Part shown: in pieces, positions 3,310 through 63,966 of the stretch | Layout of the letters: each line of letters starts with the position of its first letter | Numbering within the stretch: position 1 is the stretch's first letter | Source of the DNA: a virus | Length of the DNA stretch: 64,000 nucleotides | Virus genome (UHGV): UHGV-0293664 | Reading direction: 5' to 3' (one strand) | Program-made: the position numbers and the translations under genes | The notes under the pieces: generated by a model | The model's input: the letters and a program-made list of their open reading frames with translations, nothing else | The model's database searches: none | What the model was told of the DNA's origin: nothing

Positions 3310-3338
3310 TTGACAAACTTTGCTTAACAGTGTAATAT
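3310..3338 (+). promoter_or_regulatory. sigma70-type promoter for the tRNA cluster (TTGACA-N17-TAATAT)
   Basis: TTGACA 3310-3315, 17-nt spacer, TAATAT 3333-3338. Confidence 0.6.
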
Positions 3339-3396: not shown

Positions 3397-3471
3397 GCCC
3401 TGTTAGCTTAGTGGATAAAGCAGCGGCCTTCTAAGCCGTTGACACTGGTTCGAGTCCAGTACGGGGTGCCA
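3397..3471 (+). tRNA. tRNA-Arg (anticodon TCT)
   Basis: Hand-folded cloverleaf: 7-bp acceptor stem (two G-U pairs), D-loop with GG, anticodon loop cttctaa, T-arm actgg-ttcgagt-ccagt, encoded CCA. Confidence 0.7.
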
Positions 3472-3601
3472 AGTTCTTTTTAATGTAGCTTACTTTAGCA
3501 GAGTAAATCTTCGGCAAGTGGCGGTAACCACTTTACCGATACCTCATAGTTAGTGGTGAGAACACTAGCTATTTTAAAAAGAATTTAAATATTAGTATTT
3601 A

Positions 3602-3689
3602 GGTGAGTTAATTCCGTAGGGGTAGCGGGGCAGACTGTAAATCTGTTATCATTGCGATTCGGGTGGTTCGACTCCATCACTCACCACCA
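3602..3689 (+). tRNA. tRNA-Tyr (anticodon GTA), long variable arm
   Basis: Acceptor ggtgagt/actcacc, anticodon loop ctgtaaa, long variable arm, T-loop ttcgact, encoded CCA. Confidence 0.7.
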
Positions 3690-3803
3690 AATTTATATTT
3701 TTAAATGCATAAATCATACAGATAATGGCATTGATATTTATCGTCGTTTATACTAGTCACTAACTGCTCGAAAATCAGTGTCATTATCAGTATTGTTTAT
3801 AAA

Positions 3804-3894
3804 AGAGGGTAGGGAGCAATGGTGCTCAAGCGGTCTTGAAAACCGTCCCGTTGAGGATGACTCGATGATGGTTCGATTCCATTATCCTCTGCCA
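3804..3894 (+). tRNA. tRNA-Ser (anticodon TGA), long variable arm
   Basis: Acceptor agagggt/atcctct, anticodon stem gcggt/accgt with loop cttgaaa, long variable arm, T-loop ttcgatt, encoded CCA. Confidence 0.7.
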
Positions 3895-3992
3895 TATTGT
3901 TGACCTTGTAATTAAGCGAAAGCCGGAAGCAGAACCGGATTATCAAATGTTACAGTCGTCATCGCCGACTAGCAACATGGTCAACATACTGA

Positions 3993-4089
3993 GCTAGGTA
4001 AGCCCTTTGGCAAGGGCGAGGATTTTTAATCCTGAAAATAGACGAGGTAGTCGTTGAATACATAGGTGGTTCGATTCCATCACCTAGCA
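3993..4089 (+). tRNA. aberrant 97-nt tRNA-like gene (possible anticodon TTT; isotype unresolved; may be a pseudogene)
   Basis: Perfect 7-bp acceptor stem gctaggt/acctagc, canonical D-arm gccc-tttggcaa-gggc and T-arm ggtgg-ttcgatt-ccatc, but about 30 extra nt between anticodon and T arms and no encoded CCA. Confidence 0.4.
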
Positions 4090-4096
4090 CCTTTTT

Positions 4097-4172
4097 GCTG
4101 ATGTAGCACAATTGGTAGTGCAATTGATTTGTAATCAATAGGTTGCAGGTTCGAGTCCTGCTATCAGCACCA
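4097..4172 (+). tRNA. tRNA-Thr (anticodon TGT)
   Basis: Acceptor gctgatg/tatcagc, anticodon stem attga/tcaat with loop tttgtaa, T-arm gcagg-ttcgagt-cctgc, encoded CCA. Confidence 0.75.
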
Positions 4173-4173
4173 T

Positions 4174-4248
4174 GGCCCTGTAGCTGGAAGGTTCAAGCAA
4201 GCGACTCATAATCGCCAGACGGTGGTTCAATTCCACCCAGGGCCACCA
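4174..4248 (+). tRNA. tRNA with CAT anticodon (Met, or Ile if lysidine-modified)
   Basis: Perfect acceptor ggccctg/cagggcc, anticodon loop ctcataa, T-arm ggtgg-ttcaatt-ccacc, encoded CCA; D-stem and first anticodon-stem pair are imperfect. Confidence 0.6.
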
Positions 4249-4259
4249 AATAATAAATA

Positions 4260-4336
4260 CTCCGCGTAGCTCAGCTTGGTAGAGCGCCTGATTTGGGATC
4301 AGGAGGTCGAGTGTTCGAATCACTCCGTGGAGACCA
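4260..4336 (+). tRNA. tRNA-Pro (anticodon TGG)
   Basis: Acceptor ctccgcg/cgtggag, D-arm gctc-agcttggtag-agcg, anticodon stem cctga/tcagg with loop tttggga (G37), T-arm gagtg-ttcgaat-cactc, encoded CCA. Confidence 0.75.
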
Positions 4337-7874: not shown

Positions 7875-7903
7875 TTGCCAATCTTGATCAGATGTGGTAC
7901 AAT
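7875..7903 (+). promoter_or_regulatory. sigma70-type promoter with extended -10 (TTGCCA-N17-TGgTACAAT)
   Basis: TTGCCA 7875-7880; TG at 7895-7896; TACAAT 7898-7903. Confidence 0.5.
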
Positions 7904-7919
7904 AGAGTAATTGGAGATA

Positions 7920-7946
7920 ATAGCCCTCTGATGAGGGCTATTTTGT
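7920..7946 (+). terminator. hairpin plus T-tract just downstream of the promoter (possible attenuator)
   Basis: atagccctc-tgatg-agggctat followed by tttgtt, about 20 nt downstream of the -10 and upstream of the portal RBS. Confidence 0.4.
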
Positions 7947-7971: not shown

Positions 7972-9528
7972 GTGTCCAAAAAGAACCGCAGGAAACACAA
8001 CGCCACAGCCAAAACTGTGAATAAATCTGGGAACGCAGGCGCACCAACTCATAATGTTCGTATGAGTGAGATCGGTTCTGGCGCACTTTCCCAAATTATG
8101 GCAGAATCGCAATCTATGATGGTTGAGGAATTGCGTTGGCCTCAGCTGATTGCCACCGTGGAGACTATGAAATGTGATTCCACAGTTGCTACTGCCTTAG
8201 ATACAAAATATGTTTTCATCACGAAAGCATTCAATGATTTTAAGATCCTTTATAATGTTAAAAGTGAAGACTCTAAGAAAGCTGCAGAGCTTATAGAGTA
8301 TTCTTTGCGTAATTTGGCAAACCAACAAACTCTTCGAGATATCGCAAGAAGCGCAGCTACCTTTAACGAGTATGGTTTTTCACTGTTTGAGAAAGTATAC
8401 CGCAGAGAGAAAGAAGGTAAATATGCCGGGATGCTTCTTATTGATAAAATTGCATTCCGACCTCAGGCCAGCTTGTCCAGATCAGAGCCGTTTGTTTTTG
8501 ACAAGAATAGTAGAACACTGACAGGTATTTATCAGTCACCTAATGCATTTCTAAACACTCAGAATGCACGCTGGGCTGGACCTCTTGCTGCAATGCCTTC
8601 AAAAGGCTTTAATGAGCCTGAAATTTTCATCCCTGCTAAAAAGCTTATGCTCATGACCCTGTCAGGAACAGAATCTAACCCTGCAGGTGTATCACCAATG
8701 ATAGGTTGCTACAGATCTTTCCGTGAGAAAGTTCTGATTGAAAACCTTGAGGTTGTTGGCTGTTCCAAAGACCTTGGTGGTGTGCTTGAGCTGAAAATTC
8801 CTTCCAATATTTTGAACAAGGCCAGCATTGACCCGAATTCAATGGAAGGGAGAATGGTTGCAGACCTTATGCTTGACGCAGCAAACGCCCATAGTGGTGA
8901 GCAAAGTTTCTTTATACTTCCGTCTGATAGAGATAAGTCTGGTAAAGAGCTTTACTCCATGACCCTGAAGGGGGTTGACGGTATGGGTAAGCAGTATTCC
9001 ACTAAAGATTTGATTGATGCCCGTAAGAAGGCGATTCTTGACCGTTTCGGTGCTGGCTTTATTAACCTTGGTAACGATAACGTCGGATCTTTCTCTCTGT
9101 CTGAGTCAAAACAGTCTATCCATGGTCATTTTGTTCAGCGTGATATAGATATTATCACTGAGGCCTTCAATAAAGATCTTATCCCACAGCTTCTGGCATT
9201 GAATGGTATCATCCTTGAAGATGATGATATGCCTAAACTGAAACCTGGTCTGATTGAAGAGGTGGACATGGAGAGCTTCTCCAAGTTTGTCCAGAGGATC
9301 GGTGCTGTAGGTTACTTGCCAAAAACTCCTGCAGTAATTAATAAGATTCTTGAAGTAGGCGGGTTTGATGAAAGATTTGACGAGGACATGGATCAGGAAG
9401 AGCTGATGAAGCTCTTGGGCCAGGACATTAGTAGGGCTGGTGATGGAATGGCTGCAGGATCCACTGGCAACGGCACTTCTAAGATGTCATCAACCAGAGA
9501 TAATTCCATATCCAACATGGAAAATTAA
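7972..9528 (+). CDS. portal protein
   Basis: 518-aa ORF (GTG start after RBS GAGGGG) directly downstream of terminase; size and position typical of portal; no motif check possible. Confidence 0.55.
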   Translation: MSKKNRRKHNATAKTVNKSGNAGAPTHNVRMSEIGSGALSQIMAESQSMMVEELRWPQLIATVETMKCDSTVATALDTKYVFITKAFNDFKILYNVKSEDSKKAAELIEYSLRNLANQQTLRDIARSAATFNEYGFSLFEKVYRREKEGKYAGMLLIDKIAFRPQASLSRSEPFVFDKNSRTLTGIYQSPNAFLNTQNARWAGPLAAMPSKGFNEPEIFIPAKKLMLMTLSGTESNPAGVSPMIGCYRSFREKVLIENLEVVGCSKDLGGVLELKIPSNILNKASIDPNSMEGRMVADLMLDAANAHSGEQSFFILPSDRDKSGKELYSMTLKGVDGMGKQYSTKDLIDARKKAILDRFGAGFINLGNDNVGSFSLSESKQSIHGHFVQRDIDIITEAFNKDLIPQLLALNGIILEDDDMPKLKPGLIEEVDMESFSKFVQRIGAVGYLPKTPAVINKILEVGGFDERFDEDMDQEELMKLLGQDISRAGDGMAAGSTGNGTSKMSSTRDNSISNMEN

Positions 9529-12484: not shown

Positions 12485-12513
12485 GGGGAGGGGGTTCTCC
12501 CCTCCCCTTTTTA
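12485..12513 (+). terminator. strong intrinsic terminator after the capsid gene
   Basis: GGGGAGGGGG-ttct-CCCCTCCCC then TTTTTATTT. Confidence 0.75.
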
Positions 12514-14075: not shown

Positions 14076-14104
14076 TTGCTTTTGATGTATCTTTGTGGTA
14101 AAAT
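14076..14104 (+). promoter_or_regulatory. sigma70-type promoter with extended -10 (TTGCTT-N17-TGgTAAAAT)
   Basis: TTGCTT 14076-14081; TG 14096-14097; TAAAAT 14099-14104. Confidence 0.5.
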
Positions 14105-17032: not shown

Positions 17033-17506
17033 ATGGAAACTCAAATTTTAACTCCTTATGCGTATGACCCTAAAAAGGTCAAACTGTATCTGATGCAGCA
17101 GCGTGTCACTGGCTTCGCTGCTGACACCAAGATTGTTGTTTCAAGAAACGAAGACAACATTTATCCCCACGTCGGTGTGGATGGCGAAATGTCTGCAGCT
17201 CTGTCCCGTAACCAATCTGGTGTTATGACTGTATCTTTGCAGAACACTTCTGTATGGAACGCTTACCTTTCTGACTGGCAGAAACAGGCATCGATTACTG
17301 GCCTGGTATTCTTCCCGGTTCTGCTGGAAGGTAGCCAGGGCCCTGGTATTTCCACAATCGGTTGGATCCAGAAACAGCCTGACCTGACTTACGGAACCGA
17401 AGTAGGTCAACTGGACTGGGATATCGGTATTCTGGATGCATGGCTCAACCGTGATAACATCACTGGTGCTCTTACTGGCCTCGCAGGTCTTGCAGGTATT
17501 ATCTAA
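17033..17506 (+). CDS. tail tube / major tail protein (candidate)
   Basis: 157-aa ORF directly before the chaperone genes, followed by a terminator. Confidence 0.4.
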   Translation: METQILTPYAYDPKKVKLYLMQQRVTGFAADTKIVVSRNEDNIYPHVGVDGEMSAALSRNQSGVMTVSLQNTSVWNAYLSDWQKQASITGLVFFPVLLEGSQGPGISTIGWIQKQPDLTYGTEVGQLDWDIGILDAWLNRDNITGALTGLAGLAGII

Positions 17507-17523
17507 GGGCACACTTTAGCATA

Positions 17524-17555
17524 AGCCTCACCTTCGGGTGGGGCTTTTTGCTTTT
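17524..17555 (+). terminator. intrinsic terminator
   Basis: gcctcacc-ttcg-ggtggggc followed by tttttgctttt. Confidence 0.65.
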
Positions 17556-17596
17556 ATGGTTTTGACACACGTTCTTGAATTGCTTGAAAGGTTAAA

Positions 17597-17625
17597 TTGA
17601 CAATGCACAATAATCATGGTAAAAT
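17597..17625 (+). promoter_or_regulatory. sigma70-type promoter with extended -10 (TTGACA-N17-TGgTAAAAT)
   Basis: TTGACA 17597-17602; TG 17617-17618; TAAAAT 17620-17625. Confidence 0.6.
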
Positions 17626-17668
17626 ACACAAATATGGTGCACAACATGACTAATAAGGATGCTATAAA

Positions 17669-18402: not shown

Positions 18403-18456
18403 TCTAAGGGCCGGATTCCTTTTCTGGGATCTGGCCCTTTTTATTATGAGGAAACC

Positions 18457-20793: not shown

Positions 20794-20802
20794 TAAACTG
20801 TG

Positions 20803-20828
20803 CAGGGGGCTCTGGCCCCCTTTATTCT
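20803..20828 (+). terminator. intrinsic terminator
   Basis: gggggc-tctg-gccccc followed by tttattct. Confidence 0.6.
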
Positions 20829-20835
20829 ATCAGTG

Positions 20836-20864
20836 TTGTAAAAACGGCTATTTTATGATACAAT
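20836..20864 (+). promoter_or_regulatory. sigma70-type promoter with extended -10 (TTGTAA-N17-TGaTACAAT)
   Basis: TTGTAA 20836-20841; TG 20856-20857; TACAAT 20859-20864. Confidence 0.5.
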
Positions 20865-20897
20865 ATTTAGATGGTATCGGAGTGTCCTGGAGAGGTT

Positions 20898-27861: not shown

Positions 27862-27896
27862 CATAGGGGGCTGTTTGCCCCCTTTCAGGAGAAAGA

Positions 27897-30800: not shown

Positions 30801-31706
30801 GACCTAAACACTTACGATGGTACTTGTGAGGGCATCTACGACCAACCGCTTGATGCCAACTCGACATCTGAAAGACATTACCCAGCACCGTACGCTGGTA
30901 CTCTGATTGTTTACCAGAACAATGCAAACAATCCGAAAGGATGCGTACAGGAGTACATCACACGTTTTGGTGACAGATACACGCGTGTTGGTAACATGGA
31001 TAGAACTGGTTCCACTTACATGTGGGAAGTTTGGCGGCATGATTCTGGTAAAGCTATCCAGTTACGCCCGAATCGCAATGTTGATGAAACAGATAAAGAG
31101 CTGTGCATTCATGTTGGTGGTTCTGAAAATCCCAGCAACAACGGTAACTTACCTAAGGATGATGCTGTACTCCATTATTGGGGTAACGGCAGCACAGGGG
31201 ATCGTCCAAACGTGTTAGAGTTTAAGGTTCTTGACGAGTCTCAAGCAAATTGGGTATGGCATTGCGGTACCTTGCCGGATAAATCAAGATATCTTTCTGT
31301 AAACGGTGCTGTGAATTGCGCATCTGTCAATCAGAGTTCTGACAGGGACCTGAAAGATAACATAGCTGTTATTCCTGATGCATTAGAAGCTATTCGGAAG
31401 ATGAAGGGCTATACTTACACTCTTAAAGAGAACGGTATGCCTTATGCAGGTGTTATAGCACAAGAGGTGCTTGAAGCGCTGCCGGAAGCAGTTAGCTCTT
31501 TCGTGCAAAGAAAGGAAATCCCAAACCCTGATCAAGATGGAACCCCTTTGATAACAGAGGAAAGATTCTACAGCGTGGATTACGCAGCCGTAACAGGCTT
31601 GCTTGTCCAGGTTTGCAGGGAACAGGACGATAAAATAACCGCCCTTGAGGAGCAGGTTAAAAAATTGACAGAGGTTGTTACTGGGTTGCAAGAGAAACTG
31701 AAGTAA
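27897..31706 (+). CDS. tail fibre with C-terminal intramolecular chaperone (peptidase S74-like) domain
   Basis: C-terminal SDRDLKDNIAVIPDALEAIRKMKGYTYTLKE...YSVDYAAVTGLLVQVCREQ with terminal coiled coil; fibre-repeat-like GGTGA motifs; internal duplicated LIVWQNNANG..C.QEY segment. Confidence 0.65.
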   Translation: MADIKVVRIESLPATTAVTEDDYLVVQQPDLTRRVKIGDVVHVDGTVSHVISFKEGGKLNGPMDFAYFEEEDLYLRWKGEFPHTVPALSSPYADGGITDAAWMVYTDPSLREELESTIGASMIMTAEGQSVQDVMDVTVQTANDAKALAQRVDFGTVHTVGDVIHLDNFVGPAVIEEGRTTNYPSVAAGEKFLNGVVSRRDTTTVDGIFRGATSGAMYTIAVTNGVATTKRIALRDEFKRLEANNPTRTVIRAGDDLNTAGYLQLDATGRWGMWNQQTASWQPLAIEQGGTGARDVAGARINLGAFYKQRAALEPNFNINNLTGNQDGVYYQPMTAYATEANGYPAGSGAGHLIVWQNNANGGTGCRQEYYPFSNVDVWYLRTYQANTNQWTAWQPMVRPRNDDTFRTHIGLGSRNSPTFGHLYLSQSSADVKSASGIVNGDKYSADGVLEHGYRIYSEVRNDNKAWLTIHLHKGAKGSETHRYLGFREDGVLVCPKYMQVGDLTGQLTNWGLGEWIRSSGAERGFWGSKKAAKMVIWDGGMDESGNGSLEWGVYNNRKAKWEPLPHAAGGTGATTLADAQNLFKVPIAAGVKDLLTLPRTAGMEDGKYYPIIVRTDPYYAPATGTDITIVTRSSSGNDPMNCATLQCHYRTGGWTDRGDSFYGVVNFYQNEKAILGMVAPTRGKQEYVAFYAEARAFPVSIYASRNVVEVFTREQDYQVGSVTNNQDGVKFVAPLQSADLNLAVLGDNNTNTRPIVDFKGTSGFYTGGGTQWHYIGTAERYAVMSKMNMPKVELWADGLDYLCYGSSRKALFSNAGFQCASDGTEDLTNGTFTSKCGNGAGLKGRAEFRSTPEAGQVIVRDVVGTAHRFYNFNKDGTFSAPGGFVCHTGGDWNNQFGNNNPSKIMAGNVNGPEGSMVVGGVSVAFSGNYAFQIAGRLDRLYTRSIEGGAHRPWNKIFSHRGVGLGSTDLNTYDGTCEGIYDQPLDANSTSERHYPAPYAGTLIVYQNNANNPKGCVQEYITRFGDRYTRVGNMDRTGSTYMWEVWRHDSGKAIQLRPNRNVDETDKELCIHVGGSENPSNNGNLPKDDAVLHYWGNGSTGDRPNVLEFKVLDESQANWVWHCGTLPDKSRYLSVNGAVNCASVNQSSDRDLKDNIAVIPDALEAIRKMKGYTYTLKENGMPYAGVIAQEVLEALPEAVSSFVQRKEIPNPDQDGTPLITEERFYSVDYAAVTGLLVQVCREQDDKITALEEQVKKLTEVVTGLQEKLK

Positions 31707-31713
31707 CTGTTTT

Positions 31714-31738
31714 GCCCTCGCTTCGGCGGGGGCTTTTT
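31714..31738 (+). terminator. intrinsic terminator with UUCG tetraloop
   Basis: gccctcgc-ttcg-gcgggggc followed by ttttt. Confidence 0.65.
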
Positions 31739-31745
31739 GTTTGTA

Positions 31746-31774
31746 TTGCGTATTAACTCAAAATCTGGTAAAAT
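31746..31774 (+). promoter_or_regulatory. sigma70-type promoter with extended -10 (TTGCGT-N17-TGgTAAAAT)
   Basis: TTGCGT 31746-31751; TG 31766-31767; TAAAAT 31769-31774. Confidence 0.5.
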
Positions 31775-31805
31775 AGCTATCATGATTGTTTAACCGGGAG
31801 GCACA

Positions 31806-37213: not shown

Positions 37214-37220
37214 CAGTAAA

Positions 37221-37248
37221 GCCCCGCTTCGGCGGGGTTTATTTTTAT
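37221..37248 (+). terminator. intrinsic terminator with UUCG tetraloop
   Basis: gccccgc-ttcg-gcggggt followed by ttatttttat. Confidence 0.7.
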
Positions 37249-37255
37249 GCTCAGA

Positions 37256-37284
37256 TTGACTATTGTTACAAAATTTGGTAAAAT
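37256..37284 (+). promoter_or_regulatory. sigma70-type promoter with extended -10 (TTGACT-N17-TGgTAAAAT)
   Basis: TTGACT 37256-37261; TG 37276-37277; TAAAAT 37279-37284. Confidence 0.6.
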
Positions 37285-37317
37285 ACCTTGTAGAGATTTT
37301 CATACCGGAGGAGTGAC

Positions 37318-43556: not shown

Positions 43557-43565
43557 ACAAAGGTC

Positions 43566-46722: not shown

Positions 46723-46730
46723 TATATCTA

Positions 46731-46757
46731 ACCGCTCCTGACGGGGCGGTTTTCTTA
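46731..46757 (+). terminator. intrinsic terminator
   Basis: accgctcc-tgac-ggggcggt followed by tttctt. Confidence 0.55.
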
Positions 46758-52404: not shown

Positions 52405-52442
52405 GAAAATAAAAAGGGGCCGTTTGGCCCCTTTCTTTTTAT
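52405..52442. terminator. bidirectional intrinsic terminator between convergent transcription units
   Basis: A-tract, stem ggggcc-gttt-ggcccc, T-tract; lies between the plus-strand stop (52398) and the minus-strand stop (52445). Confidence 0.7.
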
Positions 52443-58728: not shown

Positions 58729-59718
58729 TTATTTAACGTGTTTGAAAATACCTGCCAACTCGGTCATTGTCATGCGGGTGGTCTTCATAAGATCTGTCAT
58801 AGCTTTCTCCATAATTGGGGATACTACCATAAAGTTTCCTTTAGTGAAACCTTTATTCCAGTCGGTCACCAACAGTGGTTTAAGTCCAGCTCCGAGACGT
58901 TCACCAGTTAAAGCACAACATTTTCGAATGTATGTGCTCTTAAACTGGCTGAATGACAGATCCACTTTCATACCTGCATCGTAGAACGTCTGGCAATAGA
59001 AAGTGTAAGCTTTGGCAATCTCAACATCGTCAGGCAGTGCAGGAACCTCTTCTGTAAGCTCTTCTTCGACCCCTTGAGGCTCTTTTTCCTCTTCGTAAGC
59101 CTGTTGCGTCATCTCTTCAATCTCCTCTACTACAGGCTCGTTTACAATGTCAGAAATGTGCTTGTTGGCTCCACGATTAGCCATGAAGTTTTTAAAATCC
59201 TGCATTGGTGACATATCTTCCTCCCATTCTTCGTCAAAGAGTGCCAGTTTATCCTCTTCCGTTCCATATTGCAAGATGAAATCTTCAAAAGTGTAATCAC
59301 CTTTCAATTTCTCCATACGCTCTTCGCTCAGGTGGAGCATCATCTGCTGGACAATTTTTCGATCAGTTTTGTCTTTAATCAAGACTGCGGTCTTTTTATC
59401 TACCAGACAGTCCTTTAGAGAGTTGCATCTCAACCCTACCACACAACAGTTATCAACCGCATAAGGGCCTTCATCATCTATCCGCTCTAGAGATGGGTAG
59501 AAAGGATTTCCCAGTCCGTTTTCATCCGTGTGCATGTCGAAAGGTATAAGGGTATAGTCGCATACTCCATCTCCTAAAAGTTTTTTACCAAATAGGAGAT
59601 ATTCTTCCCATGACAGGTTGAACTCTATATCTCGTTTCCGTGCATTATTCTGTTTGCGTCTGTATTTTTTGAGCAAGCGCTCTAACTCTTCTGGTGTATA
59701 ATATTTTTCAAGATTCAT
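58729..59718 (-). CDS. hypothetical protein with HNH-like cysteine motifs
   Basis: Start trimmed to the ATG at 59718 because the track start 59784 lies upstream of the predicted minus-strand promoter; motifs ERIDDEGPYAVDNCCVVGLRCNSLK and a second Cys-containing segment near the C-terminus. Confidence 0.35.
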   Translation of the reverse strand: MNLEKYYTPEELERLLKKYRRKQNNARKRDIEFNLSWEEYLLFGKKLLGDGVCDYTLIPFDMHTDENGLGNPFYPSLERIDDEGPYAVDNCCVVGLRCNSLKDCLVDKKTAVLIKDKTDRKIVQQMMLHLSEERMEKLKGDYTFEDFILQYGTEEDKLALFDEEWEEDMSPMQDFKNFMANRGANKHISDIVNEPVVEEIEEMTQQAYEEEKEPQGVEEELTEEVPALPDDVEIAKAYTFYCQTFYDAGMKVDLSFSQFKSTYIRKCCALTGERLGAGLKPLLVTDWNKGFTKGNFMVVSPIMEKAMTDLMKTTRMTMTELAGIFKHVK

Positions 59719-59749
59719 GAGTTGTCTCTTGTGCTCTGTGGGTGGAGAA

Positions 59750-59779
59750 ATCTTACCAAGGGCCTGGGAAGATGTCAAC
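59750..59779 (-). promoter_or_regulatory. minus-strand sigma70-type promoter (TTGACA-N18-TAAGAT on the complement)
   Basis: Plus-strand tgtcaa 59774-59779 and atctta 59750-59755. Confidence 0.45.
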
Positions 59780-59791
59780 CTCAAAAACGTG

Positions 59792-59820
59792 TTGACTTTA
59801 CTCTAAATCCTCGATATAGT
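59792..59820 (+). promoter_or_regulatory. plus-strand sigma70-type promoter (TTGACT-N17-TATAGT)
   Basis: TTGACT 59792-59797; TATAGT 59815-59820; back to back with the minus-strand promoter. Confidence 0.5.
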
Positions 59821-63939: not shown

Positions 63940-63966
63940 CCCCGCTTCGGCGGGGATTTTCTATTT
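63940..63966 (+). terminator. intrinsic terminator with UUCG tetraloop
   Basis: ccccgc-ttcg-gcgggg followed by attttctattt. Confidence 0.7.

Follow-up and report, generated by a model that had tools for sequence, protein, structure and literature searches.

UUCG-capped hairpins in the genome of an rV5-like phage as predicted intrinsic terminators, three of them followed by predicted promoters of sigma-70 extended -10 type

Four short hairpins with a UUCG tetraloop, located in a 64,000-nt stretch of viral DNA (UHGV virus genome UHGV-0293664; the whole stretch is referred to below as the window), are very probably canonical intrinsic terminators, as predicted from their sequence and position, and belong to an rV5-like phage whose genes the host RNA polymerase would transcribe. 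Three of them (sites A, B, and C) are followed by promoters whose architecture argues for the sigma-70 extended -10 type, while the fourth (site D) lies elsewhere in the genome. The likeness of the four hairpins is best read as apparent convergence on a standard terminator design and not as a copied cassette. The feature is ordinary and already known, since a study of phage rV5 published in 2013 had predicted each of the three promoters and every terminator except that of site C.

The structural-gene region of rV5-like phages appears, as predicted at that time, to be divided by standard terminators and sigma-70 extended -10 promoters. To this picture the present analysis adds terminator C, which the table published for rV5 lacks; the junction preceding the baseplate wedge gene, which is positionally conserved across genera while its hairpin sequence turns over; the 17-nt-spaced -35 TT(G) of the promoter motif, which favours host sigma-70; and the observation that one cassette (B) lies at the border of a tail-fibre segment that has been swapped. 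These additions are not surprising, and are useful for annotating and engineering these therapeutic-candidate phages.

Source genome and earlier predictions

The window was assigned to Vequintavirus, the rV5-like E. coli myoviruses, by megablast of 3 kb and 25 kb segments, which gave more than 110 matches, nearly full-length and 92-97% identical, to genomes of this genus including rV5, FV3, Murica, and Gotham; rV5 itself is about 96% identical to the window. Genes of the + strand occupy approximately positions 1-52398 and comprise a tRNA cluster and the head, tail, baseplate, and fibre genes. The segment at 52.4-59.8 kb is encoded on the - strand and contains the gene for an Srd-like "decoy of sigma-70" protein (Table 1), and the + strand resumes from 59861. 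In the Rfam scan only tRNAs were above threshold, and no Rfam family matched the UUCG hairpins at threshold.

In Kropinski et al. study of the rV5 genome (2013, Virol J 10:76, PMC3606486) 33 promoters, 20 rho-independent terminators, and 11 extended -10 regions were reported, together with a MEME motif TggTAaAAtA found in eight copies upstream of late genes. Table S4 of that paper (Additional file 4; ARNold/MFOLD) gives identical sequences for sites D, B, and A and also includes the promoters behind C, B, and A (Table 1); the rV5 predictions refer to the same elements as those of the window. Hairpin C is present in rV5 DNA (after ORF 37), yet it is absent from Table S4. In phage Gotham the terminators A, B, and C are annotated by ARNold, and promoters are annotated by PhagePromoter. 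Unlike the present analysis, the rV5 paper made no remark on the shared UUCG loop.

Table 1. Predicted terminators, promoters, and related features of the window, with hairpins upstream of the baseplate wedge gene in phages of other genera
Feature	Position	Strand	Sequence elements	Context	Counterpart
Terminator A	17523-17555 (hairpin 17523-17546)	+	AAGCCTCACC-TTCG-GGTGGGGCTT, tail TTTGCTTTT; 10-pair stem; U-tract TTTTTGCTTTT in the T-run	17 nt past stop codon of tail tube gene (17033-17506); tail assembly chaperone gene next	rV5 t052; ARNold in Gotham
Terminator B	31714-31743 (hairpin 31714-31733)	+	GCCCTCGC-TTCG-GCGGGGGC, tail and U-tract TTTTTGTTTG; 8 pairs, one G-U	8 nt past stop codon of 1269-aa lateral tail fibre gene; distal tail protein gene next	rV5 t041; ARNold in Gotham
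Terminator C (site of the original prediction)	37219-37248 (hairpin 37219-37240)	+	AAGCCCCGC-TTCG-GCGGGGTTT, tail ATTTTTAT; U-tract TTTATTTTT	6 nt past stop codon of 1279-aa tail fibre gene; baseplate wedge gene next	ARNold in Gotham
Terminator-like hairpin D	63940-63966 (hairpin 63940-63955)	+	CCCCGC-TTCG-GCGGGG, tail ATTTTCTATTT (AUUUUCU)	12 nt past stop codon of 126-aa gene (function not assigned)	rV5 t003
Promoter behind A	17597-17625	+	TTGACA, 17-nt spacer, TG-G-TAAAAT	-35 starts 50 nt after stem; 44 nt upstream of tail assembly chaperone gene (17669)	rV5 P051
Promoter behind B	31746-31774	+	TTGCGT, 17-nt spacer, TG-G-TAAAAT	-35 starts 12 nt after stem; 32 nt upstream of distal tail protein gene (31806)	rV5 P040; PhagePromoter in Gotham
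Promoter behind C	37256-37284	+	TTGACT, 17-nt spacer, TG-G-TAAAAT	-35 starts 15 nt after stem; 34 nt upstream of baseplate wedge gene (37318)	rV5 P036
Non-UUCG terminator	12485-12507	+		After major head protein gene; no promoter behind	rV5 t060
Non-UUCG terminator	18406-18439	+	14-pair stem	Between chaperone and tape measure genes; no promoter behind	rV5 t050
Terminator, then promoter	20804-20864	+	UCUG loop; TTGTAA, 17-nt spacer, TG-A-TACAAT		rV5 t049/P048
Non-UUCG terminator	46730-46751	+	UGAC loop	After 581-aa fibre gene; no promoter behind	rV5 t028
Bidirectional terminator	52413-52434	both		Convergent end of structural unit	rV5 t026/t027
Gene of Srd-like "decoy of sigma-70" protein	58729-59784	-			gp11 in rV5 paper
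Predicted promoter	59792-59820			Starts transcription unit holding site D	rV5 P010
Hairpin in Av-05 (Avunavirus)			GGGGC-AUAA-GCCCC	Upstream of baseplate wedge gene	
Hairpin in FENT2 (Seunavirus)			GGGGC-UUCG-GCCCC	Upstream of baseplate wedge gene	
Hairpin in A5-4 (unclassified Vequintavirinae)			GGGAGC-CUCGU-GCUCCC	Upstream of baseplate wedge gene	
Hairpin in vB_Kpn_K23PH08C2 (Mydovirus)			CCACCC-UCCG-GGGUGG	Upstream of baseplate wedge gene	
Hairpin in pEa_SNUABM_56 (Henunavirus)			CCCGC-UUCG-GCGGG	Upstream of baseplate wedge gene	
Hairpin in vB_AceP_PAc (Plateaulakevirus)			CACCGC-UUCG-GCGGGG	Upstream of baseplate wedge gene	

The four hairpins

The hairpins are present at the positions given by the original prediction with the sequences described there, and a repeat search of the window carried out independently of it returned exactly these four sites as one family. 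All of them lie on the coding strand, 6-17 nt past the stop codons of + strand genes, and all possess the loop C-TTCG-G, that is, a UUCG tetraloop closed by a C-G pair, on stems of 6-10 pairs of which 5-7 are G-C. When folded as RNA in their context they reach -16.5 to -22.7 kcal/mol with z-scores from -2.8 to -4.5, the value for terminator A being -22.7 kcal/mol (z -4.5). The features by which intrinsic terminators are recognized, namely a G/C stem-loop, a U-rich tract on its 3' side, and a position downstream of a gene, are found at each site, the tract of hairpin D being weaker than those of A, B, and C.

To call the hairpins near-identical is an overstatement: C and D have a 16-mer exactly in common, B has a 13-nt core in common with both, and A has only C-TTCG-G and the G/C-rich arms in common with the other three. 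The window contains 4 instances of the complete feature, CTTCGG within at least 5 paired bases with a T-run behind it, versus 0.025 per dinucleotide shuffle (200 shuffles, maximum 1 per shuffle), and no further member of the family was found within the 64-kb window. The octamer GCTTCGGC taken alone is marginal, with 3 matches versus 0.8 expected, and 3 of 100 shuffles reach 3.

Hairpin D had been counted among the elements of the late region, which does not agree with its location: it lies within the transcription unit starting from the promoter at 59792-59820, outside the structural-gene region. No promoter was found behind it; the GGAG and the GTG of the next gene are located approximately 11 and 23 nt 3' of its stem, and in Gotham the next CDS begins 19 nt 3' of the hairpin.

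Promoters behind sites A, B, and C

The extended -10 element TGGTAAAAT is identical in the three promoters (at 17617, 31766, and 37276), and each of them has TG one base upstream of the -10 hexamer and a -35-like element at 17 nt, as is characteristic of sigma-70 extended -10 promoters. The distance of 10-30 bp at which such promoters were thought to follow the hairpins applies to B and C, but not to A, where the -35 element is farther away (Table 1), nor to D, which has none. In an alignment constructed on the -10 hexamer, which covered 14 promoters of this kind taken from the window and from five other genera, the hexamer located 17 nt upstream starts with TT in every promoter and with TTG in 10, and the base following TAAAAT is A in 13 of the 14; P036 and P051 match TTGACA at 5-6 of 6 positions. 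In the most compact cassettes the T-run of the terminator itself fills the -35 position.

The conservation of the 17-nt-spaced -35 TT(G) favours host sigma-70 over a T4-like late mechanism. The window promoters share with the sigma-70 extended -10 class the TG one base before a TAnAAT hexamer, the 17-nt spacer, and the degenerate -35, and this argues for their assignment to the class as a prediction. Unlike plain sigma-70 extended -10 promoters, they carry an extra conserved A (TAAAATA) and are restricted to structural genes, both of which may be a hint of class-specific regulation. The Srd-like protein also leaves room for a possible switch from -35-dependent early promoters to extended -10-dependent late promoters.

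Other terminators and promoters of the window

A punctuation map was compiled from every intergenic gap of the structural region and a terminator scan. It includes approximately 11 strong sense-strand terminators in the window, 4 of which contain C(UUCG)G, while the others have the loops UGAU, UCUG, UGAC, GUUU or longer ones and the same role. The order of terminator and then promoter is found at 17507-17668, 20794-20870, 31707-31805, 37214-37317, and, weakly, at 43557; the terminators at 12485, 18406, 46730, and 63940 have no promoter behind them; the promoter at 14099 has no terminator; and the order is reversed at 7875-7942, where the promoter precedes the hairpin. The proposal that the late region is cut into separately initiated units is borne out to the extent that several predicted terminator-promoter junctions divide the structural region, but the division is made neither by one repeated cassette nor specifically by UUCG hairpins.

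Genome-wide, six C(UUCG)G terminator hairpins are present in Gotham, two of them in the nucleotide-metabolism region beyond the window. A literature search for the UUCG frequency in E. coli terminators gave indirect citations only, and hence approximately 1 Mb of other viral contigs was used as background; there C(UUCG)G is the commonest loop class, with 14 of 209 predicted terminators, in a set biased by the selection of contigs for carrying one such hairpin. Compared with this rough background of about 7%, the share of C(UUCG)G is 4 of 11 among the strong terminators of the window and 6 of about 21 genome-wide, which indicates a moderate preference of the phage for the UUCG design.

Conservation in related phages

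The protein-anchored IMG/VR search with the baseplate wedge protein returned only three near-identical relatives, and the distant ones were obtained from GenBank phages by tblastn. Among 7-11 genomes of the genus the cassettes show hardly any variation. At site C both the hairpin and the promoter are nearly invariant in 11 relatives, and a few bases 5' of the stem differ in the window itself. The loop is changed to UUCU at A in EI-SP-GF and to UUAG at C in one UViG, which suggests that the exact UUCG is not absolutely required. For a test of pairing by covariation within the genus, the 11 relatives, almost invariant at the cassettes, offered too little variation and essentially no compensatory changes; the only changes in pairing were the replacement of the G-U pair of hairpin B by G-C, found in BP9, and one G-C pair added in the 20804 hairpin, whose loop also differs among relatives (UCUG/UCCG).

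Outside the genus a terminator-like hairpin is found in the gap upstream of the baseplate wedge gene (42-60% protein identity) in all six phages of other genera given in Table 1, and in 5 of the 6 a TGnTAAAATA promoter comes after it. In Phapecoctavirus there is no intergenic gap upstream of this gene, and the junction is therefore not universal. Judged from these sequences, at the wedge-gene junction the position and the predicted function are kept and the hairpin sequence only partly. At the position of site A the 5' arm of the hairpin is the same in phage A5-4 (GCCUCA) and similar in Av-05 and FENT2 (GCCACA), and the loops of all three are other than UUCG, so that the UUCG cap at site A looks locally acquired. 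At other terminator positions UUCG occurs in A5-4, Av-05, and FENT2.

Common design of the hairpins

The original prediction spoke of a repeated terminator-promoter cassette, and this was not supported by alignment. Apart from the hairpin, the alignment of B with C is limited to a promoter core of 20 nt, CAAAAT(C/T)TGGTAAAATA(G/C)CT, which is identical at 18 of 20 positions (z 7.8), and their spacers, -35 hexamers, and 5' UTRs do not align. Similarity is modest between the promoter regions of A-B and A-C (z 3.3 and 4.4, attained in 6 of 500 and 2 of 500 shuffles, respectively), and for pairs with the cassettes at 20794 and 43557 it is no more than marginal (z up to 2.4, in most cases close to zero). 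Descent of the cassettes from one another was rejected on these alignment statistics together with the ubiquity of the hairpin. The paralogy of fibre genes was also considered as the source of duplicated terminators and rejected, since comparison of the fibre proteins upstream of B and C (approximately 1270 aa each) revealed no significant similarity.

The ubiquity is considerable. At least 120 IMG/VR viral contigs contain the exact 16-mer CCCCGCTTCGGCGGGG, and among the contigs listed as bearing it none has a blastn match of 100 nt or longer to the window. At the CCCCGCTTCGGCGGGG sites listed, at least 6 T are found in the next 9 bases on the UUCG-sense strand in 94 of 123 cases versus 11 of 123 on the opposite strand. 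The same 16-mer followed by TTT is present in at least 120 bacterial genomes of many phyla, among them Proteobacteria, Cyanobacteria, Actinobacteria, Bacteroidetes, and Patescibacteria, and two papers use the same hairpin as a designed synthetic terminator. UUCG and GAAA loops have been described as typical both of T4 mRNA hairpins and of rho-independent terminators (PMC3972237), and it was between the genes of T4 that UUCG hairpins were first observed, as structures of unusual stability (Tuerk et al. 1988 and d'Aubenton Carafa et al. 1990, as cited in PMC3972237). The hairpins of the window share with C(UUCG)G terminators and T4 hairpins the C-G-closed UUCG on a G/C stem, the U-tract, and the location after genes, with no substantive difference. 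Since UUCG-capped G/C stems are a common optimum, the four hairpins would be expected to resemble each other, and convergence on this design is the best reading of their likeness.

Proposed role

According to the established intrinsic-termination model, applied here to sequence predictions, the nascent RNA of a polymerase leaving the gene would fold into a short G/C-rich stem, closed by the C(UUCG)G tetraloop as an unusually stable and fast-nucleating cap. The hairpin and the U-tract would then destabilise the RNA-DNA hybrid, by which a part of the transcripts would be released, and the hairpin left at the 3' end would also protect the upstream message. At sites A, B, and C the downstream promoter of sigma-70 type (TTGnnn, 17-nt spacer, invariant TGGTAAAATA) would restart transcription. 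As a result the blocks of structural genes, namely sheath and tube; chaperones; tape measure; baseplate hub to fibre 1; fibre module 2; and baseplate wedge onward, could be dosed separately, with abundant products (head, sheath, tube) set apart from less abundant ones (chaperones, tape measure, baseplate, fibres). No mapping of transcript 3' or 5' ends for Vequintavirus or Vequintavirinae was found in the literature searched, the search being in part poorly targeted.

Alternative explanations

In T4-like phages the elements called PeSLs, which are composites of a terminator and a sigma-70 promoter, mediate the shuffling of genes (Arbiol et al. 2010; Comeau et al. 2014; PMC2839356, PMC4122927), and it could be supposed that the terminator-promoter units of the window are mobile cassettes of this kind, derived from each other and shuffling tail-fibre modules. 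Several features speak for it: as in PeSLs, an intergenic terminator stem-loop, a sigma-70-like promoter, and a Shine-Dalgarno sequence lie within approximately 100 bp; a fibre module of four genes lies between B and C, which have the hairpin core and the 20-nt promoter core in common; and in comparison with Gotham and ECP26 the homology is lost within the fibre gene and returns precisely at 31709, with the opening bases of cassette B, so that this copy stands at a homology breakpoint beside the variable fibre segment. However, PeSL copies are conserved over about 100 bp, while those of the window are alike in their functional cores only, with modest or marginal similarity in the other pairs and with unrelated fibre proteins upstream of B and C; the identical hairpin is found in at least 120 viral contigs with no detectable similarity to the window and in bacteria; and at site A the relatives have the same 5' arm but no UUCG. 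PeSLs carry early promoters and flank ORFans in the hyperplastic regions of T4-like phages, whereas the sites considered here are in the structural-gene region and the phage group is an unrelated one. For PeSLs, minicircles as well as recombination between copies have been demonstrated (PMC2839356, PMC4122927); in the window no such recombination was seen, only one junction is at a breakpoint, with no indel or minicircle evidence, and the other fibre breakpoints relative to Gotham and ECP26 are internal to genes. A mobile cassette is accordingly improbable. Somewhat less improbable, although still unlikely, is that a modified polymerase reads the TGGTAAAATA elements as late promoters specific to the phage, in the manner of the T4 late TATAAATA. 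This possibility was raised by the rV5 authors, who likened their motif to T4 late promoters and found it only upstream of late genes 27-66 (PMC3606486), and it agrees with the degenerate -35 as opposed to the -10 and following A, invariant across six genera, and with the presence of the Srd-like protein gene. T4 late promoters, in contrast, have TATAAATA at -10, no -35, and are read with gp55, gp33, and gp45, no homologues of which are reported in the rV5 paper (PMC3606486), while the motif of the window is TGnTAAAATA with a -35 TT(G); the invariant TG, the TT(G) placed at exactly 17 nt in all 14 promoters, and the complete or near-complete TTGACA of P036 and P051 point to sigma-70 architecture. 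With a similarly low probability both ideas may be combined: TGnTAAAATA would be a -35-independent late class of at least 6 genera, mostly placed directly behind a terminator and timed by a phage factor, for example the Srd-like decoy, which would disable strong TTGACA-type early promoters, and the junctions would serve also as fibre-exchange linkers. If this were true, a PeSL-like mechanism would exist outside T4-like phages.

As to the hairpins themselves, the marginal enrichment of GCTTCGGC alone might be taken to mean that their likeness is that of chance G/C-rich palindromes without function. This explanation, of almost negligible probability, is effectively refuted by the count of the full hairpin with T-run, by the intergenic, sense-strand location of all four directly after stop codons, by the genus-wide conservation of hairpins and promoters at A, B, and C and the conservation of D in rV5 and Gotham, and by the terminator kept at the position of site C across genera. 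More serious, but quite unlikely, is the suggestion that the hairpins are mainly stabilisers of RNA 3' ends or end points of processing, which block 3'-to-5' exonucleases and set mRNA half-lives without release of the polymerase. It would be in keeping with the unusual stability ascribed to the T4 intercistronic UUCG hairpins in the works cited in PMC3972237, with the weak U-tract of D, which lacks a restart promoter, and with the hairpins at 18406, 46730, and 27866, which lie between genes and have no promoter behind them, where full termination would starve the downstream genes. Against it, the U-tracts of A, B, and C are good ones, follow directly after the stem, and are accompanied by restart promoters, which are sensible only if transcription is reduced, and this hairpin together with a T-run serves as a working design for synthetic terminators. 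The two roles are moreover not exclusive, as a terminated transcript ends in a protective hairpin. Within the preferred reading of the hairpins as intrinsic terminators, site D would act as a terminator or attenuator in a non-structural operon with no restart promoter, and because of its poor U-tract (AUUUUCU) and the lack of a promoter its attenuation may be weak, or its main effect may be on the stability of the RNA.

Hairpin downstream of the tail tube gene in distant relatives

In the distant relatives Av-05, FENT2 and A5-4 the loci orthologous to the window's gap with UUCG-capped terminator A carry a hairpin 3' of the tail tube gene that reads either GCCACAUGGAUGUGGC or GCCUCA-AGGA-UGAGGC; its T-run is weak, and no promoter accompanies it. 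The 5' arm of the window's hairpin is identical in A5-4 and similar in the other two relatives. The Vequintavirus hairpin looks like the hairpin of the relatives extended by C-G pairs and a UUCG cap.

Coordinates of the predicted elements and orthologous loci
Feature	Position	Details
Orthologue of window 17507-17668, distant relative L129	L129 13085-13175	
Orthologue of window 17507-17668, distant relative L130	L130 7345-7436	
Orthologue of window 17507-17668, distant relative L131	L131 13108-13202	
Predicted promoter upstream of tRNA cluster	3310-3338	
Six clustered tRNA genes	3397-4333	Rfam
Predicted promoter	within 7875-7942	TTGCCA, 17-nt spacer, TGGTACAAT
Terminator-like hairpin	within 7875-7942	AATAGCCCTC-TGAT-GAGGGCTATT, then T-run; upstream of gene at 7972
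Short hairpin	27866-27882	GGGGGC-TGTT-TGCCCCC, then TTTCAGGAG

Hairpins flanking the fibre gene

Within the 3' part of the 1269-aa lateral tail fibre gene (window ~30890-31709) the DNA homology to the related phages Gotham and ECP26 is lost, and it returns exactly at 31709, 2 nt past the fibre stop codon, where the terminator B cassette (a UUCG-capped hairpin followed by a predicted promoter) begins; therefore the conserved cassette forms the right-hand edge of the swapped fibre C-terminus. At the other end of this gene the short hairpin at 27866-27882 overlaps the ribosome-binding site. This hairpin is kept in every relative checked and may serve as an attenuator or as a translational element.

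Other regulatory elements

In the region 7875-7942 the predicted promoter precedes the hairpin, an order opposite to that of the terminator-then-promoter junctions, and therefore the transcript to which the hairpin belongs would carry it in the 5' UTR. Both elements were also predicted in rV5, as P064 and t064ABC, and the equivalent of the tRNA-cluster promoter in that phage is PtRNA (PMC3606486).

The gap 857-1517 (661 nt) is devoid of coding sequence, and on the rV5 genome map only a "non-coding" box is drawn for it (PMC3606486). It contains four tandem repeats of 21-22 nt each (928-1013), all of which include the inverted repeat GTCCGTnnnACGGAC; 3' of them comes a stretch rich in G/C. The array looks like a set of protein-binding sites, either iterons or operators.

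The ORF 58729-59784 (-), located at the divergent promoter region 59750-59820, matches the PHROG families "Srd anti-sigma factor" and "decoy of host sigma70", although the family that scores best carries the label HNH endonuclease. Its rV5 counterpart is gp11 (PMC3606486).

Host labels of related records

Eighteen GenBank records (MG0656xx) are titled "Campylobacter phage" with C. jejuni as the stated host; they share ~96% identity across 25 kb with the window, which belongs to an E. coli Vequintavirus, and their host labels look doubtful.
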